Part shown: positions 1,922 through 31,059 of the stretch, in pieces
Layout: every line of letters begins with the position of its first letter
Position numbering within the stretch: position 1 is the stretch's first letter
From: Halorhodospira halophila SL1
GTDB taxonomy: Bacteria > Pseudomonadota > Gammaproteobacteria > Nitrococcales > Halorhodospiraceae
Length of the DNA stretch: 32,000 nucleotides
Reading direction: 5' to 3'
Assembly (NCBI RefSeq): GCF_000015585.1
Contig: NC_008789.1
Span: 1,410,001 to 1,442,000 of the forward strand
Notes under the pieces: model-generated
Databases searched by the model: none
What the model was told of the DNA's origin: nothing
Seen by the model: only the letters and a program-made list of their open reading frames with translations
Translations under genes and position numbers: made by a program

Positions 1922-2340
1922 TCGGCGGACCTGGTGTTCTGGGTCCGTGAGGCGGGGGGAGCGTTAGTGCCCACAGATGGTGTTATGCACAACAGCCCTC
2001 TAGGTACAGGCACAAAGGTGGGTGCCCTGGCTGGGCTCCTTCCGGTGCGCGAGAACGCGTCCATCGCCCCCCTCCACCACAGGCACGGCGAACGGTGATG
2101 GCATGCTCAGCTGACACCCTCGGGTCGTTCTCGGCGAAAACAGCAGGGCCGCCCGGGGTTGACATTGCCGGTCGCGGTAGTCATTGACCGCTCGTTTCTG
2201 CACAAGCTCCCAGCAAACGCCTCGTAACCCACTGACGGATGGAAGGGTAACGATAGGTTGCTGATTTGCCGTTGCTTTAGCACTGGCTACGGGTTATCCA
2301 GTCGACCTCGAATGCCCTCATGGCAAGGCTTCGGTCGACG

Positions 2341-2374
2341 TTCTCCACACGGTTTTCCACAGGTTTTGTGGAAA
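2341..2374 (+). promoter_or_regulatory. Triple DnaA-box-like motif, copy A (TTCTCCACA n3 TTTTCCACA GGTTT TGTGGAAA)
   Basis: Boxes at 2341-2349 and 2353-2361 (direct) and 2367-2374 (inverted). Each is within one mismatch of TTWTNCACA. The same 34-nt layout occurs at 11672 and 13608. Confidence 0.55.
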
Positions 2375-2419
2375 GGGGATCTCAGTTCTACCGCCGCGGC
2401 ACGCTCCTCCCGCGCCCAC

Positions 2420-3322
2420 TCACACCTTCACCTGATCGGCGATCTCCGCCAGGCGGCTCGTGCCGATCCCGTCGACTTCCTCAAGCTGCTCGATCCGCCG
2501 GATCGGTCTCAGGGCGACGATCGCCTCGGCGCGCTCCGGGCCGATGTGGGGGATCGCCTGGAGTTCTTCGATGGAGGCCGTGTTGAGGTCGATGCGCCCC
2601 GTCGGCTCGTCGCCCTGCCCCGCCCCCGGTGCACCACGAGCCGACCGCGCTGAGGATGGCTTCGTCGCCTCATCCACCGGCCGGGCCGGCTCGATCTGTA
2701 GCTGGGCGTGATCAGCGAAGATCTCCAGCATCTGCTCCTGGAGCACCGTCCGTGGGCCCTGGATCAGGGCCAGGTCATCGGCCTCAAAGAGCAGCGCCGC
2801 CCGCCGGGACCCCTCCAGTTTCTCGGCCGCCACTTCGGCGAGCAGTGCGATCAGGATCCGGTGCGCATCCTCCTTCGGCTGAACGGCGGCGCGGCAATGT
2901 TCAAGTCCCTGTGCCGCCTCCGCGAAGACCTCCGGGGAGCGCGGAAGCGCGACCCATCCCGCCTTCTCGCTGACCCGTCGGTGCGTCCGCTGGCCGTCCT
3001 GGAGCGCCTCACCCCGCCCCCAGACGGCCACCGCCAGGGCGAAGGCGGCGCTGAGCCGGTCCGCGTCCCAGCGGTTGATCGCCTGCTCGACGGCCTCGTC
3101 GATCCGCCGGCGCTGCCGGCACAGCCGGGCATTGCGCCACCACCGCGGCAGGGCGTGCACGTTGTCACCGACCCACTGCCCGAGGGCGATGGCGCCGCGC
3201 AGCAGCCCGCCAATGAGCATCAAGAGCAGCTGCACACCGCCGACGATGGCAGCGAAGACCATGTAGATCAGCTGCAGCTGCGCCGCCTTCTGCCCCCGGG
3301 CCTGGACGCCGAAGAGCTTCGC
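2420..3322 (-). pseudogene. 5'-truncated paralogue of the DUF4236-TM-ComEA(HhH) protein encoded at 11753..12976
   Basis: About three quarters of residues are identical by eye to residues ~115-407 of the 11753..12976 product, including the TM helix and the C-terminal IDLNTASIEELQAIPHIGPERAEAIV...VDGIG HhH domain. Homology stops exactly at the IS terminal repeat (3323). The ORF-track extension to 3616 reads through the IS end. Confidence 0.8.
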
Positions 3323-3350
3323 TGTTAGTGGCCACGTAGACTGACCCACA
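3323..3350 (+). repeat. IS terminal inverted repeat, left (TGTTAGTGGCCACGTAGACTGACCCACA)
   Basis: 27 of 28 nt match the reverse complement of 8120-8147. The TG...CA termini are typical of the IS3 family. Confidence 0.8.
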
Positions 3351-3394
3351 GTGGGGTGCGGATAAAAACTTGGACTACAAGATGGGAGTAGTCC

Positions 3395-4927
3395 ATGTAC
3401 ACGTACGAGCAGCGGATCAAGGCAGTAGAGCTCTACATCCAGTACGACAAGAACGCGGCAGTTACCGTCCGGGAGCTCGGGTATCCGTCGAAGAAGAACC
3501 TGCGGCGCTGGTATGACATTTACGCAGCAACCGGTGATTTGCCGAAGCGATCGAAGCGCAAACCAAGGTATTCGGCGGAACAGAAGCAAAGGGCCGTTGA
3601 CCACTACATGACCCATGGCCGTTGTCTAGCGAGGACTCGCAAGGCGCTAGGTTATCCTGGTGTCGAAACGCTAAGCCATTGGGTTCTGGAGCGTGAGCCC
3701 GACTTGCGTACCGGATCGAGCGCCAGCTTAACGAAGCCTCCTTCGTCGGATGAGACTAAGCGGGAGGCCGTCATTGAGCTATGTTCCCGGCAAGGGGCGG
3801 CTTCAGAGGTTGCCGAGAGGGTGGGCGTCAGCAGGCAGGTGCTGTACAAGTGGAAGGACCGCTTACTCGGTGCCGAGGCGCGCCCCCCAATGAAACCGCG
3901 TGACGATACGACCTCGCAAAGCGAACGTGGCGCCCTGGAGCAAGAGATCGAAACGCTGCAACGGCGCGTCCACCGCCTTCAGCTTGAACACGATCTGCTA
4001 ACAAAAGCGAACGAACTGTTAAAAAAAGACCACGGCGTCAACCTGCAGCTCCTGACGAACAAGGAGAAGACCCTGCTGGTTGACGCCCTCCGAAACATCT
4101 ACTCGCTCACGGAGCTGTTCACGCCGCTGCGCCTAGCCCGTAGCAGCTACTTCTACCATCGGGCTCGGCTGCGACGGCCGGAGAAGTACAGCGCCCTTCG
4201 TGGCCTTGTCAGTAGTCTGTTTGAGGACAACCACTACTGTTACGGCTACCGACGCATCCGCGTCGAACTCCACCGTCTTGGCATCGTGATCTCCGAGAAG
4301 GTGATCCGGCGGCTCATGGCGGAGGAGCAGCTCGTTGTCCAGACGACCAAGTGCCGTCGTTTTAGCTCGTACCGCGGCGAAATCACTCCGGCCCCTGAGA
4401 ACGTGGTTAACCGGGACTTCAGTGCACCGGCGCCTAACCGCAAGTGGCTGACCGATCTCACCGAGTTTCAGATTCCGGCCGGCAAGGTCTACCTATCCCC
4501 GTTAATCGACTGCTTCGACGGGCTGGCGGTCAGTTGGACGGTGGGAACCCGGCCTGATGCTGAGCTGGTGAACACGATGCTCGATTACGCCGTTGCGGTG
4601 CTTAAAGACGATGAGAAGCCGGTGGTTCATAGCGATCGCGGGGCGCACTATCGTTGGCCTGGGTGGTTATCCCGCATTGAGTTAGCCGGCCTGACCCGGT
4701 CGATGTCACGCAAAGGCTGTACGCCAGACAACGCCGCCTGTGAAGGCTTCTTTGGACGCCTGAAGGCCGAGTTCTTCTATACCCGTGACTGGCACGGCGT
4801 GACCCTTGAGCAGTTCATCGAGAAACTCGATGCCTATCTGCAATGGTACAACCGAAAACGCGTTAAGCTGTCGCTAGGAGGCCGGAGCCCTCTTGAGTAC
4901 CGAGACAGCCTCGGAATTGCAGCATGA
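3395..4927 (+). CDS. IS3 family transposase (single fused ORF, HTH domains plus DDE/rve core)
   Basis: N-terminal HTH repeats (YEQRIKAVELY..., YSAEQKQRAVDHY...), a coiled-coil, then the DDE core: WLTDLTEF, VVHSDRGAHY, CTPDNAACEGFFGRLK. ATG lies 45 nt inside the left IR. Confidence 0.9.
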   Translation: MYTYEQRIKAVELYIQYDKNAAVTVRELGYPSKKNLRRWYDIYAATGDLPKRSKRKPRYSAEQKQRAVDHYMTHGRCLARTRKALGYPGVETLSHWVLEREPDLRTGSSASLTKPPSSDETKREAVIELCSRQGAASEVAERVGVSRQVLYKWKDRLLGAEARPPMKPRDDTTSQSERGALEQEIETLQRRVHRLQLEHDLLTKANELLKKDHGVNLQLLTNKEKTLLVDALRNIYSLTELFTPLRLARSSYFYHRARLRRPEKYSALRGLVSSLFEDNHYCYGYRRIRVELHRLGIVISEKVIRRLMAEEQLVVQTTKCRRFSSYRGEITPAPENVVNRDFSAPAPNRKWLTDLTEFQIPAGKVYLSPLIDCFDGLAVSWTVGTRPDAELVNTMLDYAVAVLKDDEKPVVHSDRGAHYRWPGWLSRIELAGLTRSMSRKGCTPDNAACEGFFGRLKAEFFYTRDWHGVTLEQFIEKLDAYLQWYNRKRVKLSLGGRSPLEYRDSLGIAA

Positions 4928-5050
4928 ACCAGTCCAAGAAAATAGCCGCATACCCCAGCCGGCCATCAGAATTGACCCACCTTCGGGTGGCCCCTGGCCA
5001 CGAGAGACCGTACCGTCGGCCGCCTGACCAAGCTGCGGAAGGCGGGGACC

Positions 5051-5135
5051 ATGAAGGAGTGGGTCATGATTCATCGGATCAAAGCGCTGTACGACGAGGG
5101 ACGCGGGTTATCCGTCCGTGCCATCAGCTCGGCGA
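5051..5135 (+). pseudogene. N-terminal HTH fragment of a second transposase (IS21 IstA-like)
   Basis: MKEWVMIHRIKALYDEGRGLSVRAISS resembles the N-terminal HTH of IstA-type transposases. Similarity is lost where the GGDEF gene's 3' end begins (5124). Confidence 0.35.
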
Positions 5136-6803
5136 CACGATGGAGACGCGATTGCGGCCCTGGTGCTTGGCGGCGTAAAGCGCGCAATCGGCGCGCTCGA
5201 AGAGGTCGCGGTCGCTGTCTTCGCTAGCCAGGACGCTGACCCCAAAGCTTGCCGTCAGCCCGTGTTGCCTGAGCACCGGATGGTCGGCGAGAGCCCTGCG
5301 CAGCTTATCGGCTGACTGCTGTGCTCCGTCCAGGCCGGTGGCGGGTAGCAGGATCACGAACTCCTCGCCGCCCCAGCGGCCGACGATGTCGGCCTCGCGG
5401 ACCCCGGCACGCAGCTGGTCGGCGAGATGGCGGAGGATCTTATCGCCGACGGCATGGCCGTGCTCGTCGTTGACCCGTTTGAAGTGGTCCAGATCGATCA
5501 GCAGCATCGCCAGGGGTTTGCCGGTCTCTTGGTGTTGGGCCACCTGGGTGGCGATCTGTTGGTCGAGGCCGCTGCGATTGAGCAGGCCGGTCAGGCGGTC
5601 GTGTTGCGCCTGTTGGTCCAGCGCATGGATTTCTCGCCGACTGCGCGCCAGTCCGCGGTTGATCTGCCAGGCGAGCAGGCGCAGTTCGTGGATCCAGCGG
5701 ACGGGGCCGTGGATGGGTACCGTCTGTCTCGCAGCCGCCGCTTGGGCTGTCTGTCGCAGTGGGGTGACCAATAGCCGGCGTGCCATCTGGTGGAAGAGCG
5801 CAGTGGCCAGGACGACGAGTCCGCCCGTGCCGACTAGCACCGCAATCCAGATCTTACGCACATCCTCAGAACCGGGGTGTTGCATTTCCAGCCGGGCGAG
5901 GATGTCCAAGTGGTGGCCATCGTCGTCGAGTTCAATGCGGTTGAGCCAGGCGTAATACGATCGGGGTTGGTCCGTTGTTTCTGGCCGGTAGAGGCCCCGT
6001 TGCCCGACGGCGCGCTGGAAACGCTCCAGCTTTTGGTCCTGCTGCGTCGGGACCTCGGCGAAGGCCTTGGCCTTGTTCAACTCTTGCAGAGCCGGGTCCA
6101 GGCCTAGAGAGATCAGCCATTGGCCATTGACCAGGAAGAAGAGCTCGCCCTCGTAAAGCGCCCGCTGGTCCAAGCGCTCTTCCATGCCTCGGAACACTTC
6201 ATCGATGAACGCCGGGCTGAGACCCAGTTCCAGGGCGTAGCCGTCATCGCCGAGCGGGCCATAGGTATAGAAGCGGAACTCCCGGCTTACCAGCTCAAGG
6301 GTGGGTGGCCCGATCAGGACTTGGTCCTCGGCGAGCGCAGTCTTGAGCATACCGTGCGCATCTTCCATGCCCTCCATAGTGAAATCCAATCCTTCGTCGG
6401 GCTCGAAGGTGGTTCGGCTGATGCGCAGCTCCGGGGTGACGATGTAGACGTGGACCGGGTCGCCGAGTTCCTCGCTGAGCCGCTTCGCCAGGGCCTCGAG
6501 GTCGGTCTCCTCGATCCCGCGCTCCTCGATGGTCTGTCGGGCCTTTTCATGGGCCCGCCGATAGCGGGGTTCCCGGGCCTCCAGAAACCGCTCGAGTTCC
6601 GCGTAGCCGGCTCGCAGTTCGGCGCGTACCCCTTCGGCCAGCACAGCGTTGACGCGCTGATCGTGGGCTTGCTGCCTGTCCAGCAGGATCGCGCCGCCGA
6701 TGGTGAGGATGGCGACGAGGGCGGCGAGCAGGAAGCCAATGCCGATCAGGAGTAGTGCGCCGACGCCGATGCGTGGGCGGTATCGTGCGGGGAACAGGGC
6801 CAT
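5124..6803 (-). CDS. Membrane-bound diguanylate cyclase (two TM helices, ~300-aa extracytoplasmic sensor region, GGDEF domain)
   Basis: RLTGLLNRSGL...LLIDLDHFKRVNDEHGHAVGD...GRWGGEEFVILLP is a GGDEF domain with a GGEEF active site. ATG 6803 is conserved in the remnant copy at 25372. GTG 6845 is an alternative start that is not conserved there. Confidence 0.85.
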   Translation of the reverse strand: MALFPARYRPRIGVGALLLIGIGFLLAALVAILTIGGAILLDRQQAHDQRVNAVLAEGVRAELRAGYAELERFLEAREPRYRRAHEKARQTIEERGIEETDLEALAKRLSEELGDPVHVYIVTPELRISRTTFEPDEGLDFTMEGMEDAHGMLKTALAEDQVLIGPPTLELVSREFRFYTYGPLGDDGYALELGLSPAFIDEVFRGMEERLDQRALYEGELFFLVNGQWLISLGLDPALQELNKAKAFAEVPTQQDQKLERFQRAVGQRGLYRPETTDQPRSYYAWLNRIELDDDGHHLDILARLEMQHPGSEDVRKIWIAVLVGTGGLVVLATALFHQMARRLLVTPLRQTAQAAAARQTVPIHGPVRWIHELRLLAWQINRGLARSRREIHALDQQAQHDRLTGLLNRSGLDQQIATQVAQHQETGKPLAMLLIDLDHFKRVNDEHGHAVGDKILRHLADQLRAGVREADIVGRWGGEEFVILLPATGLDGAQQSADKLRRALADHPVLRQHGLTASFGVSVLASEDSDRDLFERADCALYAAKHQGRNRVSIVSPS

Positions 6804-6843
6804 GGCAGGCGGGCTTCCGTGCTCGCTAAAAGGGGGGCGCGCC

Positions 6844-6873
6844 ACACGGGGCGCCCCGAGGGGCGCCCCGTGT
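6844..6873. terminator. Perfect 14-bp-stem GC hairpin (ACACGGGGCGCCCC GA GGGGCGCCCCGTGT); terminator-like or operator-like
   Basis: Self-complementary by inspection. It lies between the cytochrome c' remnant and the GGDEF start and is repeated at 25316-25337. There is no U-tract. Confidence 0.4.
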
Positions 6874-6886
6874 GGATCATCGGACG

Positions 6887-6955
6887 ATCATTGTCTCGAA
6901 AGTTGTTCCGGCAAGTCTGGCACAACTCGCCGACCTGCATAAATGGCCCTTGGTA
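6887..6955 (-). pseudogene. C-terminal remnant of a cytochrome c' gene with a destroyed heme motif
   Basis: YQGPFMQVGELCQTCRNNFRDN aligns with IQGPFMQVAESCQACHDNYRDN* of the intact gene at 24842-25297. CxxCH has become CQTCR and the stop codon is lost. Confidence 0.7.
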
Positions 6956-7060
6956 CATCCTTACAAGCGGCCCCCCAAGGAAGGGTGATGGCACTTCGTC
7001 GAAACATCGACGCCGCTCTGATGAACTGCCAGCCGGCGCCCGTTGCGAACAACTGACTCT

Positions 7061-7714
7061 TTAGAGGGAGCGAATCAAGTCAGGACCGTTGTTCTTGGGT
7101 GTGTTCACCCGAGAGCTGACCGGATGTGCGACCAGCTGCGCCATATTTAGGCCGCGAGTTGCCGCTTTCACGGACTTCCGATCACTGATTTCGGGATCCA
7201 GCCACTCGTCCCAGCACTCGGGCGCGAGGACGAGCGGCATGCGGTCGTGGAGAGGCTGCAGATGCGCCTTCGACGGCTGCGTGATGATTGCGAAGGACGC
7301 CGCCCGTTCTTCGGTGGCCGGCTCATAGACACCCGCGAAGCACAGCAGGTCGTCGTCCCGGGAGGCGATGAAGTGCGGAACCTTCCCCTGTTCGGCCTTT
7401 TGCCACTCGAACCAACCGCTGGCTGGAATCAGGCAGCGGCGATGGGCGAATGCAGAGCGGAAGTAAGGGCTGGAGGCGACCGTCTCCGCCCGGGCGTTGA
7501 TCGGTGCGGGTTGGCTGGCGTCGGCCCACCATGGCCGAAATCCCCAAAGCAACGGCAAGAGATGCCTGCCGTGATCGCAAGACACGGCGACCGGCTGCTG
7601 CGTGCCCGGCGGTACGTTGTAGTCAGGTGAGAGTTCGCCGCAGTCGTCGTAATCGATGCGAAGCGCTCGCATGATTCGGGAATGCGGAGCGTAACGGGCG
7701 AACCGGCCACACAC
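7061..7714 (-). CDS. SOS response-associated peptidase (SRAP, YedK/HMCES family)
   Basis: It starts MCGRF (catalytic Cys2), followed by YNVPPGTQ, LLWGFRPWW, INARAETV and IPASGWFEWQK, which are typical SRAP blocks. Confidence 0.9.
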   Translation of the reverse strand: MCGRFARYAPHSRIMRALRIDYDDCGELSPDYNVPPGTQQPVAVSCDHGRHLLPLLWGFRPWWADASQPAPINARAETVASSPYFRSAFAHRRCLIPASGWFEWQKAEQGKVPHFIASRDDDLLCFAGVYEPATEERAASFAIITQPSKAHLQPLHDRMPLVLAPECWDEWLDPEISDRKSVKAATRGLNMAQLVAHPVSSRVNTPKNNGPDLIRSL

Positions 7715-8119
7715 AGTGACAGACTCCGTACTCGGGGGACCGAAAACGATTGTGGCACGGCCTCGGGGCCGTTGTGTGATCCGGCCACGACCACCACGGC
7801 TACAACCCGCAACGCGACCGGTGTAGCCACCGCGCCACCGGAACGCAGCAGGAGTCGGTCATCGTGCACACGCTCGACACCATCGGCTACGAGCGCACCG
7901 ATCTTGGAGTTACCCCGCTTCCGTCGACGGTTCGCGGCTTTCGCACTGGGCGGACGTGACCCCAAAACCCAGTGACGGCGTCTGGGGGGGGGGTGTGGCA
8001 CCCCTCAATGAACTGGAAAACGGCCAACGTGGGGTGCGCAGAAACGACACTCCGTGTGATTCCGGAACCGAGTGCGGCCAATGAGTGTCAATGGCCACCG
8101 CCTCGGACCCACTCCGCTG

Positions 8120-15980: not shown

Positions 15981-16616
15981 ATGGCCAACCACGACACCAC
16001 ACAGAAACACACCGCCAGCGATCTCGCCGACAACGCCCTGCGGGACATCGATAAGGCCCGCAGCGACCGCATGCTCAACGGCCCGATCCACTACCCGATC
16101 CTTTACCGCGGCGGGCTGCTGCTGATCGTCATGGCCGGCGGGCTGCTGGTCGGCGGACAGGTGGAGCGCTTCGAGGAGAGCCTCGAGGCTCTGATCGTCC
16201 TCGCCTTCTTCATCCCCGTCGTCATGGACATGGGCGGCAACATCGGCACGCAGTCGACCACCGCCTTCGCCCGGGGGTTTACCCTCGGCCACGTCTCCAC
16301 CGCCAATCTTTGGCGCATGGTCGGGCGTGAGCTGGTCATCGGCCTGGTCCTCGGCGTGGTCATGGGCATCATCGGCGGCATCGCGGCCTCCCTGTGGCAG
16401 GGGGATCCGAGCGTCGGCCTCGCCGTGGGCGGGGCACTGGCCCTCGGTCTGCCGATCGCCACCACCATCGGATTCCTGATCCCCTACGGCCTGCTGAAGA
16501 TCGGCGTCGACCACGTCCCGGCCAGCGACCCGATCATGACCACGGTCAAGGATTTCACCATGGTCACGATCTACTTCAGCCTCGCCGCGATGCTGATCGG
16601 AATCGACGTCGCCTGA
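15981..16616 (+). CDS. mgtE: MgtE-type Mg2+ channel, membrane domain only (no N-domain or CBS pair)
   Basis: FIPVVMDMGGNIGTQS and PASDPIMTTVKDFT are hallmark MgtE TM-domain motifs. ATG 15981 has GAGGAG 6 nt upstream. At 211 aa it is about half the usual length. Confidence 0.85.
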   Translation: MANHDTTQKHTASDLADNALRDIDKARSDRMLNGPIHYPILYRGGLLLIVMAGGLLVGGQVERFEESLEALIVLAFFIPVVMDMGGNIGTQSTTAFARGFTLGHVSTANLWRMVGRELVIGLVLGVVMGIIGGIAASLWQGDPSVGLAVGGALALGLPIATTIGFLIPYGLLKIGVDHVPASDPIMTTVKDFTMVTIYFSLAAMLIGIDVA

Positions 16617-16710
16617 GCGCTGCCAACGAACCCGGCGAAGACGCCCCGGGCGCGCCGCCACCGACCAGCGCCCGGGGCCTTCAGACCAACCGACGAACCA
16701 AAAGAGCAGG

Positions 16711-17400
16711 ATGATGAACACGACGACCATGCGTACACCGCAGCCCCGCCGCGCCGCGGCTGCGGGGCTGACCCTGAGCGCCGCCGCACTCGCCCTGCCG
16801 ACGGCCAGCGCCGAGGACTGGGCCGAGCGGACCACCTTCGAGTTCGGGGTCTTCAGCGACTACCTCGACACCGGCGAATCGGTGAGCAAGAACAACGCCG
16901 TCGCCCAGGGCGGCATCGAGTACGGCCATCCGGGCGGGCCCTTCCTCGGGACCGCCGTCTCGACACTGGACGGGAATGAGCAGGGGCAAGAGGTGGTGCC
17001 ATACCTGGGCTACGGCTTCACCGCCGGCGAGGTGGACCTGAGCCTCGCCTACGAGTACGCCTACTACCCGGAGCAGGACGACGCCGATGAGGGCGAGGTG
17101 ATCCTCGGCGCCGGCTGGCGCGGCCTGGGGGCGGAACTCGCCTACATGGCCAACGCCGACGACAGTGATGCCGCGGGCAGCATCGTCTACGCCCTGGGCT
17201 ACGGGTTTGACGTGGCCGAGGACATCGCCCTCGATGCCACCATCGGCTACGACGACCCGGACGACGCGAGCGGGGACGCCTTCTGGGAGCTGGGCGTCAG
17301 CCGCGCAGTGGACGTCGGCGAGATCTCGCTGGTCTACGGCTCGCGGGATGAGAGCGGCGCACAGGACGTCTTCGTCGCCGGCTACAGCGTGAGCTTCTAG
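16711..17400 (+). CDS. TorF-family (TIGR02001-like) outer-membrane porin
   Basis: Signal peptide ending PTASA. The mature start FEFGVFSDYLDTGESVSKNNAVAQGGIEYGH, the Tyr/Gly-rich strands and the C-terminal SVSF are typical of this family. Confidence 0.65.
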   Translation: MMNTTTMRTPQPRRAAAAGLTLSAAALALPTASAEDWAERTTFEFGVFSDYLDTGESVSKNNAVAQGGIEYGHPGGPFLGTAVSTLDGNEQGQEVVPYLGYGFTAGEVDLSLAYEYAYYPEQDDADEGEVILGAGWRGLGAELAYMANADDSDAAGSIVYALGYGFDVAEDIALDATIGYDDPDDASGDAFWELGVSRAVDVGEISLVYGSRDESGAQDVFVAGYSVSF

Positions 17401-21433: not shown

Positions 21434-22126
21434 TCAAACCGGTGGTTTCTGGGCTCGGCAAGGCCGGAAATAGCGACGCACTCCCGCACCCACAAAGTTC
21501 GAACCACCCCGGACCCCGCTGAACAGCCCGAAGACCCCGGAGCGGTGATGGATACGCACAAAACCGCTCCAGTCCCGCCCCGGGGGCTTGCCTTCGATCT
21601 CGAGTAGCAGGTAATTCAGTAGCTGCGCCGAGTCTTCGTCGTCGTCCTTATCCCCGCGGGGCTCGATGCGTGGCTCCTGCGTCGCCCAGGACAAACCCTC
21701 ACCGAAGGCGGCCCGGGTGTCCAGCCAGCGATCCCAGGGGAACCGCGTCCAGCGTGCCACCAGTACGCCATTGACCTCCCCGTGGCGCTGCATGCCGGTA
21801 TGGCGCGCCAGCTGCCCCTCGACCTCCCAGTCCAGCGCCCCCCAGCGGGCGACCCGGGTGCCGTAGACGAGGCCGACCAGATAACTCTCCTGCCGACTGG
21901 CCGACCATCGACTGACGATGTGGACCAGGCGGTTTTGCGCGCTCTGCCCCACGTAGAACCCGACATAGGATGGGCGGTCGGCAGACCCCGGCGAAGGGGC
22001 CACGTCCTGCCCCGCCCCCACCGCAACCGATCCTGCGGCCAGGGCCAGCACCACGGCATACCCGCCGAGCCTGACTCCTTGCATAGCCACCGCCGCCCTC
22101 TGCAGCACTGCCCCCTGGCCCGTCAA
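21434..22126 (-). CDS. PagL-like acyloxyacyl hydrolase / lipid A deacylase family outer-membrane protein
   Basis: Signal peptide from the internal Met (22084). The C-terminal block VRIHHRSGVFG...GGSNFVGAGVRRYF resembles the PagL His/Ser region and terminal aromatic residue. Confidence 0.55.
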   Translation of the reverse strand: MTGQGAVLQRAAVAMQGVRLGGYAVVLALAAGSVAVGAGQDVAPSPGSADRPSYVGFYVGQSAQNRLVHIVSRWSASRQESYLVGLVYGTRVARWGALDWEVEGQLARHTGMQRHGEVNGVLVARWTRFPWDRWLDTRAAFGEGLSWATQEPRIEPRGDKDDDEDSAQLLNYLLLEIEGKPPGRDWSGFVRIHHRSGVFGLFSGVRGGSNFVGAGVRRYFRPCRAQKPPV

Positions 22127-22217
22127 TGTAGCGAACCGAACCCGGATACTCGCCCTGCCCAGGAGGGAGCCGTTACCATCGCCAGACCATAAGGGCGAAA
22201 AAGCCGTAGAGAGAACC

Positions 22218-23042
22218 GTGCGCTTGTTGCTGAGCCTTGCCCTGGCCGCGGGGCTCGTCTACGTGGGGTTCGGTGCGCTGCTCTTCCTGGCGCAGGAGCG
22301 CCTGGTCCACCTCCCGCAGGTGCCGACCCGGGAGCTGCAGGCCTCACCCGCCGACCGCGGCTGGGATTACCAGGACCTTGCCATACCCAGTGCCGGGGGG
22401 ATCACCCTCCACGGCTGGCACGTCGCCGCCGATCGTCCCCGTGGGGTTGTGGTCTTCTTCCACGGCAACGCCGGCAACATCTCCCACCGCCTCGACACCA
22501 TCGCCATCCTCCGCGATCTCGGCCTGGATGTGGTCATCTTCGACTACCGGGGTTATGGGCGCAGTGAGGGTTCCGCCCATGAGCGGGGGCTACATGAGGA
22601 CGCTCGGGCCGTGGCCCGCTGGGTCCGCGACGAGTTGAACGTGCCCCGCGAGCTCACGATCTTCCACGGCCGATCCCTGGGTGGTGCCCTCGCAGCCAGC
22701 GCGGCGCGGCAGATCCCCCCAGGCGCGCTGATCCTGGAGTCGACCTTCTCCTCCGCTGAAGCGGTGGCTCGCGACCTCTACCCGTTCTACCCGACCCGCT
22801 GGCTGACCCGTCTGGAGTACGCAACCGCGGACTACCTGGCGGAGGTGGACGCCCCCACGCTGATCATCCACAGCCGCAACGACGAGATCATCCCCTATCA
22901 CCACGCCGAGGATCTGCGTGCGGCCGCATCGGCCAGTGCCGAACGACTCACCATCCGGGGAGATCACAACACTGGGTTCCTCACCAGCGGCGACCGGTAC
23001 CGGGCGGGACTGCAGCATTTCCTGGAGCAGCACCTGCTGTAA
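22218..23042 (+). CDS. Alpha/beta hydrolase (BEM46-like, N-terminal membrane anchor)
   Basis: VVFFHGNAGN, DYRGYGRSEG, and the nucleophile elbow HGRSLGG. Confidence 0.85.
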   Translation: MRLLLSLALAAGLVYVGFGALLFLAQERLVHLPQVPTRELQASPADRGWDYQDLAIPSAGGITLHGWHVAADRPRGVVVFFHGNAGNISHRLDTIAILRDLGLDVVIFDYRGYGRSEGSAHERGLHEDARAVARWVRDELNVPRELTIFHGRSLGGALAASAARQIPPGALILESTFSSAEAVARDLYPFYPTRWLTRLEYATADYLAEVDAPTLIIHSRNDEIIPYHHAEDLRAAASASAERLTIRGDHNTGFLTSGDRYRAGLQHFLEQHLL

Positions 23043-23163
23043 CACTGCGTCGGTGGAAGACCGCCTACACTCATGGTTCACTCGGGAGAGGGGCAGCGTC
23101 TGCGGTCTAACCGACCCGTGTTCGTACCACCAAGCTCACCGGCTCAGAGAAGGGGAATCCACC

Positions 23164-23928
23164 ATGAACCGAGCACAAGGCAGGGTCATCGTCATCACCG
23201 GCGCGGCCGGGGGCATTGGCGAGGCGACGGCACGGCATCTCCACGCGCAGGGGGCACGCCTGCTGCTGACCGACCGCGAGCCCGAAGGCGTTCAACGGCT
23301 TGCAGAGGAGCTGGGCGACGGCGCGGCCGCGATGGCCGTCGATGTCTCCAGCCAGGCCGATAACGAAGCCATGATCCAGGAAGCCGAGGCGCGTTTCGGC
23401 GCCGTGCACGGACTGTTTCTAAACGCCGGCATCGAGGGCCAAGCCGGTCCGCTGGAGGATGCAGATGACAGCGTCTGGAACCAAGTCTTCGCCGTGAACG
23501 TGCATGGCGTGCGCTACGGGATCCAGGCCGCCCTGCCCGCTCTGCGGCGCGCCCAGGGCGGTAGCATCCTGATCACCGCCAGCGTTGCCGGTGTCCGGGG
23601 GGCGGCGGGACTGAGCCCCTACGTCAGCAGCAAACACGCCGTCATGGGGCTGATGCGGACCGCCGCCGCAGAGCTCGGGCCCGAGGGGATTCGCGTCAAC
23701 ACTGTCAATCCGGGCCCGGTGGACAACCGGATGATGCGCTCCATCGAGGATCAGGTGAGCCCCGGCCATGGCGACGAGGTCAAACGCGGGTTTACGGCCC
23801 GCATCCCGTTGGGGCGCTACGTCAACAACGATGAAGTGGCTGCGGTGGCGGCCTTCCTGCTCTCCGAGGCCGCCTCCGGGATTACCGGGTCCAACTACAT
23901 GGTCGATGGCGGGATGACGGCACACTAA
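23164..23928 (+). CDS. SDR family oxidoreductase (classical)
   Basis: ITGAAGGIG, NAG, and S...YVSSKHA (YxxxK). ATG 23164 is used; the upstream extension to 22918 in the ORF track overlaps the hydrolase gene. Confidence 0.9.
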   Translation: MNRAQGRVIVITGAAGGIGEATARHLHAQGARLLLTDREPEGVQRLAEELGDGAAAMAVDVSSQADNEAMIQEAEARFGAVHGLFLNAGIEGQAGPLEDADDSVWNQVFAVNVHGVRYGIQAALPALRRAQGGSILITASVAGVRGAAGLSPYVSSKHAVMGLMRTAAAELGPEGIRVNTVNPGPVDNRMMRSIEDQVSPGHGDEVKRGFTARIPLGRYVNNDEVAAVAAFLLSEAASGITGSNYMVDGGMTAH

Positions 23929-23938
23929 GCTACCGCGC

Positions 23939-23962
23939 GCGGGCCGCTGCACGGTGGCCCGC
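23939..23962. terminator. Hairpin between convergent genes (GCGGGCC n10 GGCCCGC)
   Basis: 7-bp GC stem located 11 nt after the SDR stop and 6 nt before the cytochrome b561 stop. Confidence 0.35.
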
Positions 23963-23967
23963 TGCCG

Positions 23968-24627
23968 TCACGGCGCCGTCACCAGGAGCAGCCACACCAC
24001 CCCCGCGGCGACTGTCCCGGCGACCACCGCACGGTACAGGGGGGCGATCCATGGCGGGGCGAAGCCATTGCGCTTGTAACCGCTGATCATCGCCACCAGC
24101 AAGCGCTCGCCCCGTACCCAGCGATACACCGCGATGGCCGCCACATGGAAGGTCACCAGGATCAGGAGTACATCGAAGATCTGCGTATGCAGCCGGGTCA
24201 TGGTCCGCTCCAGGTCGGAGCCGACCCAACCGGTCAGCGGGCCACTGCGGAGGATATCGTCGGTGGCGAACAGCCCCGTCACCGCCTGCGCCAGCACCAG
24301 GGCCAGCAGAACGATCACCGCCCAGCCCCCTAGGGGATTGTGGCCGCGGCTGGGGGTGCGATCGCGCCACCACCCCACCAAATACCTCCCGACCGTTCGC
24401 GGCCCGGCCAGGAAATCACGGAAACGCGCTGTCTCGCTCCCCACGAACCCCCACAGGATCCGGAACAGGACCAGAGTCAAGACCGCGTAGCCGCTCCACT
24501 TGTGCAGGTCCCATCCGGACAGGCCTTGCTCCGCGCTATACCAGGACAGGCCCAGCGCCAAGACCAGCCCCCAGTGAAACAGCCGCGTGGGCAGATCCCA
24601 GATGAAGACCCGCTGCCGTTCGCTCAT
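23968..24627 (-). CDS. Cytochrome b561 family protein (CybB-like, PF01292-type)
   Basis: The start IWDLPTRLFHWGLVL..., four TM helices and conserved His positions. It is divergently paired with cytochrome c', a common pairing. Confidence 0.85.
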   Translation of the reverse strand: MSERQRVFIWDLPTRLFHWGLVLALGLSWYSAEQGLSGWDLHKWSGYAVLTLVLFRILWGFVGSETARFRDFLAGPRTVGRYLVGWWRDRTPSRGHNPLGGWAVIVLLALVLAQAVTGLFATDDILRSGPLTGWVGSDLERTMTRLHTQIFDVLLILVTFHVAAIAVYRWVRGERLLVAMISGYKRNGFAPPWIAPLYRAVVAGTVAAGVVWLLLVTAP

Positions 24628-24841
24628 CGTCCTCCCGCTATGTCTCCGGGCGACCGTATCCGACCGACTGTCTGCACCCTACGCCTCACCAGGCTAGCGT
24701 CTCCGCTTGTCTGCTGTCATGCGCCCAGCGTCGCAGCGGCATTTGATCCGAATCACGCTGCCAACTACGCTGGTTCGGGTGCCGAGAATGGACTGGCCAC
24801 GCGGGGCTTCACGCCCACGCAACCGCGAAGGAGGAAGCACC

Positions 24842-25297
24842 ATGCGCAGACTGATGACCACGACCCTGGCCCTCGCCACCGGATGCCTGCTCGCCGGAAC
24901 GACCATGGCCCAGTCCGACGAGGAACAGATCGAATACCGCCAGGCCGTATTGACCGTGATCGGCGGCAACTTCGGCCCCATGGGGGATATGGCCCAGGGC
25001 GAAATCGATTATGATGCAGAGCGATTCGCCCGCAACGCGCAGCGTGTAGCGGATCTAAGCCGCATGGGCCTGGAGGGGTTCGAGGGTGGGCCGCATAGCG
25101 GCGACACCGACGCCAAGACGGCCATCTGGGACGAGTGGGAAGAGTTCGAGCAGGGTATGGCCGACTTCGAGGCCGCAGCCCGGGAGCTGGCCGAGGCGAC
25201 CGAGGGCGGCGAGCAGGATCTGAGCGATATCCAGGGCCCATTTATGCAGGTCGCAGAGTCCTGCCAAGCCTGCCACGACAACTATCGAGACAACTGA
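24842..25297 (+). CDS. cycP: Cytochrome c' (class II c-type cytochrome)
   Basis: Signal peptide, a four-helix-bundle-like sequence (EYRQAVLTVIGGNFGPM...), and a single C-terminal heme motif CQACH followed by DNYRDN*. GGAGGAAG lies upstream of the ATG. Confidence 0.9.
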   Translation: MRRLMTTTLALATGCLLAGTTMAQSDEEQIEYRQAVLTVIGGNFGPMGDMAQGEIDYDAERFARNAQRVADLSRMGLEGFEGGPHSGDTDAKTAIWDEWEEFEQGMADFEAAARELAEATEGGEQDLSDIQGPFMQVAESCQACHDNYRDN

Positions 25298-25315
25298 TCG
25301 TCTAACGATCCACAG

Positions 25316-25337
25316 GGGGCGCCCCGAGGGGCGCCCC
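25316..25337. terminator. GGGGCGCCCC GA GGGGCGCCCC hairpin or tandem palindrome (second copy)
   Basis: It lies 18 nt after the cycP stop. The same element occurs at 6848-6869. Confidence 0.4.
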
Positions 25338-25371
25338 GTCCGCCTTTCGCGAGCATGGAAGCCCGCCTGCC

Positions 25372-25638
25372 ATGGCCCTGTTCCCCGCACGATACCGCCC
25401 ACGCATCGGCGTCGGCGCACTACTCCTGATCGGCATTGGCTTCCTGCTCGCCGCCCTCGTCGCCATCCTCACCATCGGCGGCGCGATCCTGCTGGACAGG
25501 CAGCAAGCCCACGATCAGCGCGTCAACGCTGTGCTGGCCCAGGGGGCGCGCGCCGATTGCGCGCTTTACGCCGCCAAGCACCAGGGTCGCAACCGCGTCT
25601 CCATCGTGCCGCCGGGATCGGGGCCGAATGCCGCGTAG
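25372..25638 (+). pseudogene. Internally deleted remnant of the GGDEF gene (first ~57 codons joined to the last ~20)
   Basis: 25372-25535 is identical to the reverse complement of 6640-6803. 25557-25620 matches the 3' end at 5127-5187. The junction falls on CGCGCCGA, which is present at both breakpoints in the intact copy. Confidence 0.8.
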
Positions 25639-25676: not shown

Positions 25677-26165
25677 TCAGTCCCGCAGGTCCAGCGTCAC
25701 GCTGGTGCCCTCTTCGTCCACGGTAAACGCCGCATCGGCGAAATCGGGCGGCCCCATCCGACCCATGGCTCCGCGACTGAAACCTGCTGGCTCGCGCGGG
25801 ATGCCGAGGAAGTTGGTGGTCAGATCCCCGCTGCCGTCCAGATCCTGAAAGGCCGCTACGGCGTACTCACCGGGCACCAGGTCGGAGATCGTCAATGCAA
25901 CCGCGTCGCCTTCGACCGGGCGAGCCTTACGGATCAGCGCGCCATCCGGATCCGGGAAGGCTTCTGGATCGTCGAAGACGGCGACGTAGACACTGCCCTG
26001 ACCTGCCTTGGGCAGCAGGATCTCCAATTGCAAGGTTGCCGCGATCGCAGGACTGATACCCATCAACAGGGCCACACAGCCCGCAACCCGGAGCGCCGGA
26101 CCCTGCCAGGCCGGGGTGATCGCACGCACGATCGATCTCCTGCATTGACCTACACGAACCTGCAC
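25677..26165 (-). CDS. DUF2141 domain protein (secreted)
   Basis: VYVAVFDDPEAFP, AVAAFQDLDGSGDLTTNFLGIPREPAGFS and PPDFADAAF match the DUF2141 pattern. The exact start is uncertain. Confidence 0.8.
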   Translation of the reverse strand: MQVRVGQCRRSIVRAITPAWQGPALRVAGCVALLMGISPAIAATLQLEILLPKAGQGSVYVAVFDDPEAFPDPDGALIRKARPVEGDAVALTISDLVPGEYAVAAFQDLDGSGDLTTNFLGIPREPAGFSRGAMGRMGPPDFADAAFTVDEEGTSVTLDLRD

Positions 26166-26319
26166 TTCGCAAACTCTCCCATTGGGCCCTCCCTGGTAAA
26201 CCCCCTATACCCCTTTGCCCAGGCAGGATTTTGGTTAGACTGACCGTATAGCCGTATCTTAGAGCGTGCCACGCTGGCGGGGGGCGTCGCGAGCGCGCAC
26301 GCGAGAGGGACCATCGATC

Positions 26320-28338
26320 GTGCATTTTGAACTGCTTCGGCGGGGAACGCAGGGATCATCCACACAGGGCCTCCAGCTGCTTCAGGCAACCCTGGATGCT
26401 CTGGATGCCCATATTGTGGTCATCGACCTACAGGCCCGCATCCGCCTGACCAATCGGGCCTGGCGCCGCTTCGCCCAGGACGGGCAAGCAACGCAGGAAC
26501 AGGTGGGCATCGGTGCCGACTACATGGCCGCGCTGCGCAATGCCCGCGAAGCTGGCGACGCCGATGCGGCGGTGGTCCTGGAACGCATCGAGGATCTGCT
26601 CGCCGGTCGCCGGCCTTTTGCCCACCACGAGTACCCCTGCCCCGGGCCGGACCGCGAGCGATGGTTCGTTATGCAGGCCACCCCGCTACGGTTCGACGAA
26701 GACAGCACGCCGGAGGGGGCCGTCATCGCCCATAGCGATATCACCGATCGTTTCCGGGCGGAGCAGACCGCCGGCGAAATGGCGCGGCAATTGCGCGAGC
26801 GCGTCAAGGAGGCAGAGTGCCTAGGCGGCGTCGCCATGCTGACCCACCGTGCCACCAGTATCCCGGATACCCTGACGGCCATCGCCGAGCACCTGCCCAC
26901 TGGCTTTCTGCACGAACACGCCTGCCGCGCCGCCATCACCTACCGGGACAGGCGCTATCCACCCGACGAGCCGACGCCGGAAATGGGGGCGCGCCTTAGC
27001 GCCCCGATCCACATCAGGGGCGAAGGGGTCGGTCAGATCACGGTGGGCTACGATGCGCAGCTTGGGCTGGGCGATGACCCCTTCCTGCCCGAAGAACAGC
27101 GGCTGATCGAACGCAGCGCCCTGCTTCTGGGCCAATACTTGCATCGAGAAGAGATCCGCAAAGAGCTCGAGGGCGCCAACCGGATCAAGACCCAGTTCCT
27201 CAATGCCGTCAGTCACGATCTGCGCACCCCGCTCAATGCCCTGCTCGGCGCGATCGACATGCTCTCGGAGACACCGCTGAGCGAGGAGCAGCGAGCGCAT
27301 TTGTCGTTGGGCGCGCGCGCCGGCGAGAAGCTGGAAGGCCTGATCGATATGCTTCTCGATCTGGCGCGATTGCAGCACGGCCGGCTGAACCTCAAACACG
27401 AACCCTTCGACCTGCTGGATGTCGTCCGCCGCCAGGTCGAGTTGGTCGAATCCGCGCGGGCAAAACCGGCGGTCACGATCGAGATCGCCACCGAGGGCGC
27501 AGAACCCTGGCTGGTCGAGGGCGACGGCGAGCGAGTTGGCCAAGTAATCAGCAATCTGGTGGATAACGCGGTCAAATTTACTGCTTCGGGCAACGTAACG
27601 GTCCGCTTGGCCCGTGTCGGCGAGGAGTGGATCCGGATACGGGTCCTGGACACCGGCCCGGGGATCGGTGAAGCCGAGCGCGAGCGCATCTTCGACTGGT
27701 TCTTTCAGGGCGAACGGGTCACCGAGGAGCACGGCGGGATCGGCCTCGGCCTGCGCATTTGCCTGGAGCTCCTTCGCGCCATGGGGGGCTCCATCGACGT
27801 CGCGAATCGCCGCGACGGACCCGGCGCCCAATTCACCCTGCTGCTACCGTTGCCAGCTTCGGCAGCCAACTTGTCGACCCCAGCTACGCGAAGCCAGCAA
27901 GGCAGCATGGCTGCACAGCAGACGGAAAAACCGCTTAATGGCGTCCGCGTGGTGGTCGCCGACGATGAACCGATCAATGCCCGCCTCACCCAGGCGTTGC
28001 TCGAGCAGATGGGTGCGCATGTCTTCCTCGTGGATGACGGCCCGGGGGCGCTGGCAGCCTGGCGGGATCGGGGCCCGGACCACCTGCTCCTCGACGTCCA
28101 GATGCCTGGTCTGGAAGGTCCAGAGGTCGTGCGGCGCATCCGCTGTGAAGAGGCCGAAACCGGCCGGCGGCGGACGCCGATCACCATGCTGACGGCCCAA
28201 GACGCACCCCCCGTGCGTACGGCCTGCGAGCAGGCCGGCGCCGACGGCTATCTGCTCAAGCCGGTCCGCGCTGCGGATCTGCGCAGTCACGTGGCCCGTA
28301 GCGATCCTCCGGGCGCTCAGGGAGTTACCCCGACTTGA
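26320..28338 (+). CDS. PAS-containing hybrid sensor histidine kinase / response regulator
   Basis: The PAS-like N-terminus is followed by a GAF-like middle region. H-box: FLNAVSHDLRTPLN. HATPase: DNAVKFT, DTGPGI, GGIGLGL. REC: VVVADDEPIN...LLLDVQMPGLEG...LLKP. GTG 26320 has GAGAGGGA upstream. Confidence 0.85.
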   Translation: MHFELLRRGTQGSSTQGLQLLQATLDALDAHIVVIDLQARIRLTNRAWRRFAQDGQATQEQVGIGADYMAALRNAREAGDADAAVVLERIEDLLAGRRPFAHHEYPCPGPDRERWFVMQATPLRFDEDSTPEGAVIAHSDITDRFRAEQTAGEMARQLRERVKEAECLGGVAMLTHRATSIPDTLTAIAEHLPTGFLHEHACRAAITYRDRRYPPDEPTPEMGARLSAPIHIRGEGVGQITVGYDAQLGLGDDPFLPEEQRLIERSALLLGQYLHREEIRKELEGANRIKTQFLNAVSHDLRTPLNALLGAIDMLSETPLSEEQRAHLSLGARAGEKLEGLIDMLLDLARLQHGRLNLKHEPFDLLDVVRRQVELVESARAKPAVTIEIATEGAEPWLVEGDGERVGQVISNLVDNAVKFTASGNVTVRLARVGEEWIRIRVLDTGPGIGEAERERIFDWFFQGERVTEEHGGIGLGLRICLELLRAMGGSIDVANRRDGPGAQFTLLLPLPASAANLSTPATRSQQGSMAAQQTEKPLNGVRVVVADDEPINARLTQALLEQMGAHVFLVDDGPGALAAWRDRGPDHLLLDVQMPGLEGPEVVRRIRCEEAETGRRRTPITMLTAQDAPPVRTACEQAGADGYLLKPVRAADLRSHVARSDPPGAQGVTPT

Positions 28339-29267
28339 TACGGCGCCAGTAACCGCTCCAGGTATTCGAGCAGCGCTTCTCGCTCCGTGGCGGTCTCCCG
28401 GGTTCCGGGGACCAGGTAGGGGGACACCCGGCGGCGATCGAAGTAGAAGCCGCCCGACTCGAGCGCGCTAGAGGCATCCGCGGCGCCCTCCCCGGAACTG
28501 GCGCGCGTGACCAGCCAGACCAGTGTGTCCGCCCCCTGCTCCGGGGTCCGCAGCCGGCCCTGCGTCCAGCGCCAGAACCCCGGGATGGCCTCGCGCACGC
28601 CGGCCGTATCAACCCACCCCGGGTGCATGGCAAAGCACCCGACGTTGCGAAACAGGGGCATGCGCGCCATCTGCGCGTTGACGATGGTCTGCGCGCGCTT
28701 GACGTTGGCGTAGGTCGCCACCTTGTCGTAGCGGTCGTTCTCGAACAGGTGGCGCAGATGCAGGCGCTGAAGGTACATCCCGCCGGAACTCATCCAAACC
28801 ACCCGGGCCCCTTCGCGCAGCTTGCCGGCCCGCGCCAGATTGTGGACGAGCAGGTAGTGGCCGAAGAGCTGAGAGGCCATCTGTAGCTCGACGCCGTCGG
28901 CGTTCAACGTGAACCGCTCCGGCATCGCCCCGGCGTTGAGAGCGATGAAGTCCAGGGGCGGCAGTGTCTCCACCGTGCGCGCCACAGCCGCCCAGTCCCC
29001 GGTATCCAGCGTACGGTAATCCGTATCCTCGGCCTGTTCCGAGCGACCGCAGCTCAGCACACGGTGGCCCATCCCGCGCAGGCGATGCACGGCAGCCGCA
29101 CCGATGCCCCGGCTGCCGCCGGTGACCAGGCCGGTCAGTGCCTCGTCGGGCCCGCTTCGCAAACGATCCCGGAAGCCGGGCCAGGTTCGGGCGTGCCGCT
29201 CGGAGCCACTGCGGTCAAAGGAGAAATAGATGGATGCGTCGAGCAGCCACTCGTGGGGTTTTCTCAT
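28317..29267 (-). CDS. SDR family oxidoreductase (DHRS12/retinol-dehydrogenase-like)
   Basis: VTGGSRGIGAA, NAG, and YANVKRA (YxxxK). Its 3' end overlaps the kinase gene by 22 nt (convergent). Confidence 0.8.
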   Translation of the reverse strand: MRKPHEWLLDASIYFSFDRSGSERHARTWPGFRDRLRSGPDEALTGLVTGGSRGIGAAAVHRLRGMGHRVLSCGRSEQAEDTDYRTLDTGDWAAVARTVETLPPLDFIALNAGAMPERFTLNADGVELQMASQLFGHYLLVHNLARAGKLREGARVVWMSSGGMYLQRLHLRHLFENDRYDKVATYANVKRAQTIVNAQMARMPLFRNVGCFAMHPGWVDTAGVREAIPGFWRWTQGRLRTPEQGADTLVWLVTRASSGEGAADASSALESGGFYFDRRRVSPYLVPGTRETATEREALLEYLERLLAPYQVGVTP

Positions 29268-29357
29268 GGGCAGGCCGTTCCGTGGGGCTGATATCGTGGC
29301 TTATACTTTGCAGCTTAATCGCGCCGCGCTCGACATCAAAGGGAGGAGACTCGAGCG

Positions 29358-29678
29358 ATGCCCTTCAGCAAACCATCCCATATCGCCATCCCGATCGCCC
29401 TTTGGGGATTCTTCCTCGCCGCCCCCGTCCAGGCAGACGACGATTCGCTCACCCGAGGTGAACTCATCGGCCAGAGCTGCTTTGCCTGCCACGGGCCGCA
29501 AGGCCAGGGGGCCGACACCATGCCGCCCATCGCCGGCTGGGACGAGGACCTGATGGTCGAGCACCTGAAAGACTTCCAAGAGGGCAAGCGCAACCCCACC
29601 GTGATGGACCGTCACGCCACCGGGTACAGCGAAGGAGAGCTCCGCGAGCTTGCCGCTTACCTGAGCGAACTCGACTGA
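29358..29678 (+). CDS. fccA: Monoheme c-type cytochrome, flavocytochrome c small subunit
   Basis: Signal peptide and a single CFACH motif. It lies 13 nt upstream of fccB. Confidence 0.8.
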   Translation: MPFSKPSHIAIPIALWGFFLAAPVQADDDSLTRGELIGQSCFACHGPQGQGADTMPPIAGWDEDLMVEHLKDFQEGKRNPTVMDRHATGYSEGELRELAAYLSELD

Positions 29679-29691
29679 GGGCCCTTCGACC

Positions 29692-30996: not shown

Positions 30997-31059
30997 CGGA
31001 TTGGTGCCCGGCCACGCTAGAGTGGCCCGCAACCACACGCGGAAAGGACTCATTCAGCG

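Follow-up and report, generated by a model that had tools for sequence, protein, structure and literature searches.

Deletions between short direct repeats arise by replication slippage or by a microhomology-mediated route, are independent of RecA and are known from the classical lacI deletion spectra. Relocation of a gene by duplication and reciprocal loss has usually been described for eukaryotic or whole-genome duplicates. The tufA and tufB genes of Salmonella and E. coli lie in inverse orientation on one chromosome and exchange sequence non-reciprocally in a RecA-dependent manner; this gene conversion proceeds processively, cannot pass large heterologies and breaks off where homology ends (PMC5485169). 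Insertion sequences (IS) of the IS21 family are characterized by IstA/IstB, by terminal inverted repeats built of L1/L2 and R1/R2 repeats and by a terminal CA (PMC10122671). Here, we describe two loci, A and B, on the chromosome of Halorhodospira halophila SL1, located in a stretch of 32,000 nt (NC_008789.1, positions 1,410,001 to 1,442,000; ~65% G+C) which is called the window and to which all coordinates refer. Both loci contain the junction of cycP, encoding cytochrome c', with a gene encoding a GGDEF-domain diguanylate cyclase. We estimate a probability of about 80% that this gene was relocated in H. halophila by duplication and complementary loss, with gene conversion layered on top.

The homology of the two loci was mapped by repeat finding, gapped local alignment and self-BLAST, all of which gave concordant results. 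Locus A (5130-6953, minus strand, 1824 nt) is an inverted copy of the cycP-GGDEF junction at locus B (25231-25614), and the two are 18.5 kb apart. The following genes and remnants were identified, with L001, L093 and L094 denoting related contigs.

24842-25297, plus strand: intact cytochrome c' gene cycP at locus B (Pfam Cytochrom_C_2, 4.2e-36; in synteny with L001, L093 and L094)
25372-25638, plus strand: GGDEF remnant at locus B, in frame, 88 aa, with the first transmembrane segment (TM1) and the last ~25 residues but no GGDEF (catalytic) domain
5124-6803, minus strand: intact diguanylate cyclase gene at locus A, 559 aa (Pfam GGDEF, 2.4e-45; NCBIfam TIGR00254; translation)
6891-6953, minus strand: cytochrome c' tail pseudogene at locus A, codons ~131-151, with CxxCH changed to CQTCR and a 1-nt deletion (frameshift) before the stop codon
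7061-7714, minus strand: SRAP (YedK-like) gene (Pfam SRAP, 1.1e-62), upstream of the relocated GGDEF gene and in the same direction

As in relocation by duplication and reciprocal loss, locus B keeps cycP and a GGDEF stump, locus A keeps the GGDEF gene and a cycP stump, and gene order is changed while gene content is the same. Different from the usual cases is the setting, a 1.8-kb bacterial segment embedded in IS debris. A preliminary description of the window had already proposed an inverted duplicate of the cycP-GGDEF junction with reciprocal decay; the alignments recovered all of its elements at or near the positions given there, and each locus indeed consists of one intact gene plus a remnant of the other. 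The cycP remnant in locus A carries the mutated haem motif as described, but comprises the last ~21 codons instead of ~22.

The alignment falls into four segments; the intergenic hairpin is listed after them.

B 25231-25293 with A 6953-6891 (inverted): 13 mismatches in 63 columns
B 25295-25339 with A 6890-6846 (inverted): 6 mismatches in 45 columns
B 25340-25556 with A 6835-6619 (inverted): 8 mismatches in 217 columns, all located at 25342-25356 and 25540-25548
B 25548-25614 with A 5196-5130 (inverted): 3 mismatches in 67 columns
A 6836-6890, minus strand: GC-rich intergenic hairpin between cycP and GGDEF (GGGGCGCCCC twice), marking the left edge of a homology island; its counterpart in B is 25295-25339

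Upstream of a block of perfect identity described below, A and B diverge by ~18-21%. A 10-nt indel (A 6836-6845) lies in the hairpin region; it lengthens the hairpin of locus A to a stem of ~15 bp with a predicted free energy of -47 kcal/mol, compared to -38 kcal/mol in B. A tblastn search for further remnants of the neighbours of B near A found none, so there is no evidence for a larger duplicated block.

The diguanylate cyclase encoded at locus A matches an H. halophila protein with 100% identity. It has two predicted transmembrane segments flanking a domain of ~280 aa without family assignment, followed by the GGDEF domain with a GGEEF and an RxxD motif; motifs and transmembrane segments were read from the translation. 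At its 3' end the last eight native codons, as present in B, are replaced by two codons. Since omega against the orthologues is 0.19, the gene is intact beside a decayed neighbour and both motifs are present, it is very probably under purifying selection and the functional copy. The cycP tail reads QGPFMQVGELCQTCRNNFRDND in A and QGPFMQVAESCQACHDNYRDN followed by the stop in B, and the haem motif is CQTCR in A versus CQACH in B. When the tail was polarised with L001, nine changes were A-derived and two B-derived, which places the decay on the A branch, as expected if cycP of locus B stayed functional.

The relatives were obtained by two routes. Metagenomic contig L001 was found by exact-protein look-up of a 73%-identical homologue (P0002), and L093 and L094 came from a metagenome-contig scan with the sensor part of the GGDEF protein as query; a scan of genome contigs with the whole protein returned only distant GGDEF domains, dominated by the generic WGGEEFVI motif. 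All three contigs have the order abhydrolase, SDR, cytb561, cycP, GGDEF (560 aa), DUF2141, adh_short, cyt c and FCSD, which is collinear with window 21464-25564, 25684-26026 and 28390-32000. Because the context of B, with a full-length GGDEF gene after cycP, is collinear with these contigs, gene order identifies B as the ancestral site, A as a relocated copy and the 88-aa open reading frame (ORF) as an in-situ remnant. The preliminary description had left the question of the ancestral locus to comparative genomics, and synteny answers it in favour of B. The cycP-GGDEF pair is known in relatives only from these three contigs; the adjacency was not seen in more distant homologues, where the gene upstream of P0005 is a LysR gene and that of P0003 a 139-aa ORF.

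Locus A is 74% identical to the orthologous region of L001 (9285-11080). Outside the identity block, 35 of 198 columns show a state which is derived with respect to L001 and common to A and B; the copy thus stems from the H. halophila lineage and not from a source as distant as L001. Raw A-B divergence in the cycP tail is ~0.2, as opposed to a dS of ~0.95 to L001; judged by these values the duplication is an old event, yet one that long postdates the branching-off of the relatives.

At both loci there is 100% identity between the window and the independent draft assembly GCA_016583685.1, whose contigs match the window without mismatch. Logan contigs of run SRR5961519 (k=31) stop 30 nt after entering the exact repeats, at 25386 and 25557, and a contig of run SRR9436781 likewise ends at 25386. 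An assembly artefact as the source of the identity pattern was rejected on the basis of the identical draft and these break points.

Deletion at locus B and the 183-nt identity block

Five features define the deletion and the block.

A 6619-6626, minus strand: 8-nt direct repeat CGCGCCGA, upstream copy in the intact gene (sequence search)
A 5188-5195, minus strand: the same octamer, downstream copy in the intact gene (sequence search)
B 25549-25556, plus strand: deletion junction with a single octamer left; 1431 nt (477 codons) are gone
A 6636-6818, minus strand: perfect identity block of 183 nt, A arm (alignment; proposed gene conversion tract)
B 25357-25539, plus strand: perfect identity block of 183 nt, B arm (alignment; Logan contigs end within it at 25386)

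The 88-aa ORF at locus B joins the first ~56 GGDEF codons to the last ~25. The missing 1431 nt comprise one copy of the repeat and the 1423 nt lying between the two copies, and the loss is in frame (3 x 477). The state before the deletion is represented by the full-length gene (560 aa) between cycP and DUF2141 in L001, L093 and L094. Since A has the octamer at both breakpoints, B has it once and the orthologues are full length, a microhomology-mediated deletion from an ancestral full-length gene is supported by the sequences. In comparison to classical short-repeat deletions, where likewise a repeat is present at both breakpoints, one copy is retained and the intervening DNA is lost, nothing essential differs; here the loss is in frame, and three to four substitutions lie directly 5' of the junction. 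For annotation this means that ORF 25372-25638 should be regarded as a remnant and the copy at 5124-6803 as the functional diguanylate cyclase.

The identity block begins 15 nt upstream of the ATG. Its B arm is centred in a homology island of 217 nt (25340-25556) with a margin of 17 nt and four mismatches on each side; the island extends from the 10-nt indel to the deletion junction. Among the 383 aligned columns, the 183-nt run contains no mismatch and the other 200 columns contain 30. A permutation test gave no perfect run of at least 183 nt in 200,000 random placements, and the analytic Bonferroni bound is 2.2e-7. Compared with the L001 orthologue, both copies have a different nucleotide at 46 of the 183 positions. 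The stretch is thus conserved no better than the remainder of the gene, and the synonymous difference from the orthologues (pS) is 0.53 for codons 1-56 and 0.54 for the whole gene; selection therefore fails to explain the block. Taken together, the comparisons support gene conversion between the copies.

The preliminary description had reported the octamers at 6619-6626 and 5188-5195 as the signature of a microhomology-mediated deletion; this agrees with the single octamer found at B. The loss between the repeats was also seen correctly, its size being 1431 nt in frame instead of ~1.42 kb. The identity block it reported exists, but is 183 nt long and not 164 nt, as it also extends 4 nt past the end given for the shorter block. 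Mismatches spread evenly would have spoken against such a block; the profile is clearly uneven, and recent gene conversion or recombination, as suggested, is borne out by the permutation statistics and the orthologue control.

As with tufA and tufB, the copies lie inversely on one chromosome, the exchange would be non-reciprocal, the tract is continuous and stops at heterologies, and the repeats could in principle mediate inversion. Unlike the tuf genes, the pair described here includes a dead remnant that retains just 217 + 67 nt of homology, background divergence amounts to ~15-20% instead of ~1%, the distance is 18.5 kb instead of 762 kb, and conversion is deduced from sequence and was not observed. 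A tract confined to a homology island fits the behaviour of tuf conversion, which stops at heterologies and homology ends (PMC5485169). Because the tract lies in the middle of the 217-nt island, between indel and deletion junction, and tuf conversion is blocked by heterologies, conversion most likely followed the deletion.

Insertion sequences around locus A

On either side of locus A lies one end of a degenerate IS21-family element.

3323-3351, plus strand: left terminal repeat (L1) of the IS21-family element; abuts a truncated ComEA-like gene, whose homology to a paralogue stops at 3322
3352-4955, plus strand: IS3-family insertion sequence, 1604 bp, with transposase ORF 3395-4927 (NCBIfam NF033516, transpos_IS3, 3.9e-118)
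4959-5129, plus strand: IS21-family left end, continued, with L2 repeat, leader and the first 21 istA codons from the ATG at 5068; cut where locus A begins
7825-7908, plus strand: DUF488 gene scrap (leader and first 15 codons), collinear with L001
7905-8147, plus strand: IS21-family right end, ending in CA

Inverted repeats of 28 nt (TGTTAGTGGCCACGTAGACTGACCCACA) at 3323-3350 and 8120-8147 are identical at 27 of 28 positions, with none expected by chance. After removal of the IS3 insertion, the left end shows an L1/L2-like repeat of the form GGCCA-N7-TGACCCAC. The first 21 istA codons (MIHRIKALYDEGRGLSVRAIS) matched annotated istA starts on plasmids in a blastn search with 75-78% identity; a comparison of the right end (7715-8149) with plasmids gave no informative match. 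Hence, the element resembles the IS21 family in its 28-nt TG...CA terminal inverted repeats, in the internal second repeat behind the left terminus and in the start of istA at the expected distance from the left end. It differs from the family in that 2.8 kb of host-type DNA stand in place of istB and of istA beyond its first 21 codons, that there is no target duplication (flanks ...CTTCGC and GCCTAAG...) and that the left end is split by the IS3-family insertion. With the rest of istA absent and no istB remnant seen, the element is a relic and not a functional or active member. The segment between its ends (5129-7905) holds locus A, the SRAP gene and the ~80-nt DUF488 scrap.

The IS3-family element ends in TGGGGTGCGGATAAAAACTTGGACT and, reverse-complemented, in GGGTATGCGGCTATTTTCTTGGACT, and is flanked by a 3-bp target duplication CAG (3349-3351 and 4956-4958). 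Its transposase covers the whole NF033516 profile and has Pfam rve and HTH_Tnp_1 domains. The gene is one uninterrupted ORF of 510 aa, in which the family model covers residues 120-503 only; an additional N-terminal HTH_28 region (residues 6-55) precedes the part covered by the model, and no obvious orfA/orfB frameshift was seen. The element is multicopy: a collapsed repeat contig of 1604 bp in the draft assembly (L082) matches 3352-4955 without mismatch, and the neighbouring draft contig and a Logan contig end inside the element at 127 nt and 30 nt, respectively. The preliminary description had placed locus A in an IS-bounded region. Locus A does lie between IS ends, but the 28-nt repeats belong to the degenerate IS21-family element and not to the IS3 transposase element, which is nested in the left IS21 end.

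The IS21-family left end interrupts one member of a pair of ComEA-like paralogues (C-terminal HhH; 2154-3322 versus 11485-12637, 75% nucleotide identity; paralogue at 11753-12988). The left copy lacks its first 116 codons, which were found neither beyond 8147 nor anywhere else in the window. As the missing N-terminus is absent beyond the right inverted repeat, the unit bounded by the inverted repeats is not a simple insertion. From ~1650 to ~21460 the window replaces 3.4 kb of L001, and its sequence marks this region as a rearrangement hotspot full of gene scraps. Tiny scraps at 1493-1561, 1591-1644 and 7825-7908 (Band_7, NfeD-like and DUF488) have the order and orientation of the intact genes in L001. 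The literature on H. halophila transcriptomes or IS descriptions was searched, and nothing relevant was found.

Proposed course of events and competing explanations

We propose that evolution started from the order cytb561, cycP, full-length GGDEF gene and DUF2141 at locus B. An inverted copy of a segment reaching from within cycP to just before the GGDEF stop codon would have been inserted 18.5 kb away, in the rearrangement-prone region between the ends of the IS21-family element. In the copy, the useless cycP fragment would have decayed, with loss of the haem-ligand histidine and a frameshift, while the GGDEF gene was presumably kept by purifying selection. At locus B, a RecA-independent deletion between the octamers, by replication slippage or microhomology-mediated joining, would have removed 1431 nt and left the in-frame 88-aa stump. 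Non-reciprocal homologous exchange of the 5' ends would then have wiped out the differences over 183 nt, and the IS3-family element probably inserted later into the left IS21 end. As net effect, the only functional diguanylate cyclase copy would be uncoupled from cycP and now lie downstream of the SRAP gene. The case would thus date and order four ordinary processes at one locus, namely ectopic duplication, pseudogene decay, short-repeat deletion and gene conversion, and it illustrates that a gene can change its chromosomal position and regulatory neighbourhood with gene content unchanged. All component processes are known; this is a clean new instance of them, not a new kind of system, and it raises no new question.

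Several observations weigh against this course of events. Both ends of locus A are cut within genes, and one end abuts the interior of istA and not an IS terminus. From sequence, the route of inverted copying cannot be read from the junctions, there being no target duplication at the IS21-like ends; two routes remain. The copy was made in the genome by ectopic repair or template switching, or an IS21 cointegrate, later eroded, brought it in from a close relative. The 3' 67 nt are 95.5% identical, as compared to 79-87% upstream, so that a single tract of 183 nt is insufficient for the whole profile; to account for this similarity, one has to assume an additional, older tract or a gene pair that was nearly identical at the outset, and the copies may have exchanged sequence more than once or been homogenised over the whole gene at an earlier time. 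Of the four mismatches immediately preceding the junction, three are B-derived. These may be products of the deletion event, and in that case the argument for conversion after deletion loses weight. Consensus promoter and terminator scans around both loci found nothing, and with respect to expression of locus A the promoter result is unfavourable. Furthermore, Logan contig L084 (run SRR9436782), corresponding to window 4926-7187, runs at k=31 across the exact repeat of 183 nt and that of 38 nt shared by A and B, where the contigs of other runs break, and no B-locus contig was found from this run. Possible reasons are uneven coverage, perhaps because of RNA, or a clone without the B remnant.

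The identity pattern allows a different account, in which the GGDEF copies were near-identical over their full length until recently, by recent duplication or gene-long conversion, the mismatches at the junction stem from error-prone synthesis during the deletion, and no separate short tract was formed after it. The ~250 nt of GGDEF-derived sequence contain only seven mismatches, four of which cluster within 9 nt of the junction with three being B-derived, and the high identity of the 3' 67 nt fits as well. However, this account also has to accommodate a sharp boundary at 25356/25357, since the 17 nt directly before the block hold four mismatches (25342-25356) and a further 19 fall into the intergenic region and the tail of cycP. 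Such a boundary would itself be one of conversion or recombination, and 3 of 67 versus 0 of 183 is uneven for neutral sequence of equal age; we regard this account as possible but rather unlikely. Hardly credible is preservation of the block by selection on the N-terminal transmembrane segment or the leader. Functional constraint is conceivable, as the block includes TM1 and the ribosome-binding region; yet the orthologues differ in this very stretch, synonymous difference there is as high as in the rest of the gene, and B is a gutted remnant with no obvious cause for constraint at synonymous sites. Selection was therefore rejected as the origin of the block on the grounds of the 46 differences and the pS of 0.53.

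The position of locus A between left and right IS21-family ends in correct mutual orientation would fit import from a close Halorhodospira strain, on a replicon fused via an IS21-family cointegrate and then eroded by deletions, the 183-nt block being a later conversion against the resident copy. IS21 elements act on tandem copies and fuse replicons (PMC10122671), and a neutral A-B divergence of ~18-21% is large for a duplicate in a region where an IS3 copy matches a 1604-bp contig without mismatch. On the other hand, the many derived states common to A and B, as judged against the only outgroups, require a very close donor; the DUF488 scrap within the IS21 ends is collinear with L001 and suggests chromosomal DNA in situ; and no target duplication, replication or transfer genes or istB remnant were found. 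We therefore consider import a doubtful explanation, though one to be taken seriously beside relocation within the genome. Very improbable, in our view, is that the inverted blocks act as a recombination switch, with both isomers present in the population and an inversion of 18.5 kb that brings the full-length GGDEF gene back behind intact cycP and the cycP promoter. The preliminary description had noted that the blocks could invert the intervening DNA, which is a possibility and no more. The two inverted blocks match perfectly at a distance of 18.5 kb from each other, and from the anatomy alone a crossover within them recreates cycP followed by the full-length GGDEF gene with the protein unchanged. 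Draft contig NRRO01000009.1 (114,794 nt), however, spans both loci in the orientation of the window (window coordinate = contig + 4828). Since the window and this independent contig share one orientation, the dominant arrangement of A and B is fixed; a minority isomer is invisible in consensus assemblies. No recombinase or invertase domain was found in ~37 of the longer ORFs of the window, the part of its ORFs that was scanned against Pfam or NCBIfam, and 183 nt is short for frequent RecA-dependent inversion. It is equally improbable that the blocks are kept identical as the crossover site of a reversible inversion toggling the cyclase between a cycP-coupled context and one downstream of the SRAP gene; if true, this would constitute a RecA-driven expression switch for c-di-GMP signalling. 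In a variant of this reading, the in-frame 88-aa stump with its transmembrane segment would persist because it serves the complete enzyme as a small partner in the membrane.

Further features of the window

Scans for tRNA genes and Rfam families yielded no tRNA that could serve as an integration site; the sole match was an unrelated M-box (Mg2+) riboswitch (15650-15831, plus strand, 127.8 bits) upstream of a MgtE-like ORF (15966-16616). An ORF on the minus strand (15375-16835) which overlaps the M-box is probably spurious. Between DUF2141 and adh_short, a gene encoding a hybrid PAS-histidine kinase-receiver protein is located at 26266-28338 (plus strand); it is absent from this position in L001, L093 and L094.

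Clusters of DnaA-box-like 9-mers were found at 2344-2377, 11675-11705 and 13608-13638, with one copy conserved in L001 (2325-2357). They include a perfect TTATCCACA, are arranged as the palindrome TTTCCACA-N5-TGTGGAAA and adjoin the two ComEA-like (HHH_3) genes. A function as oriC was rejected as no switch in GC skew occurs; the clusters may represent a regulatory site.

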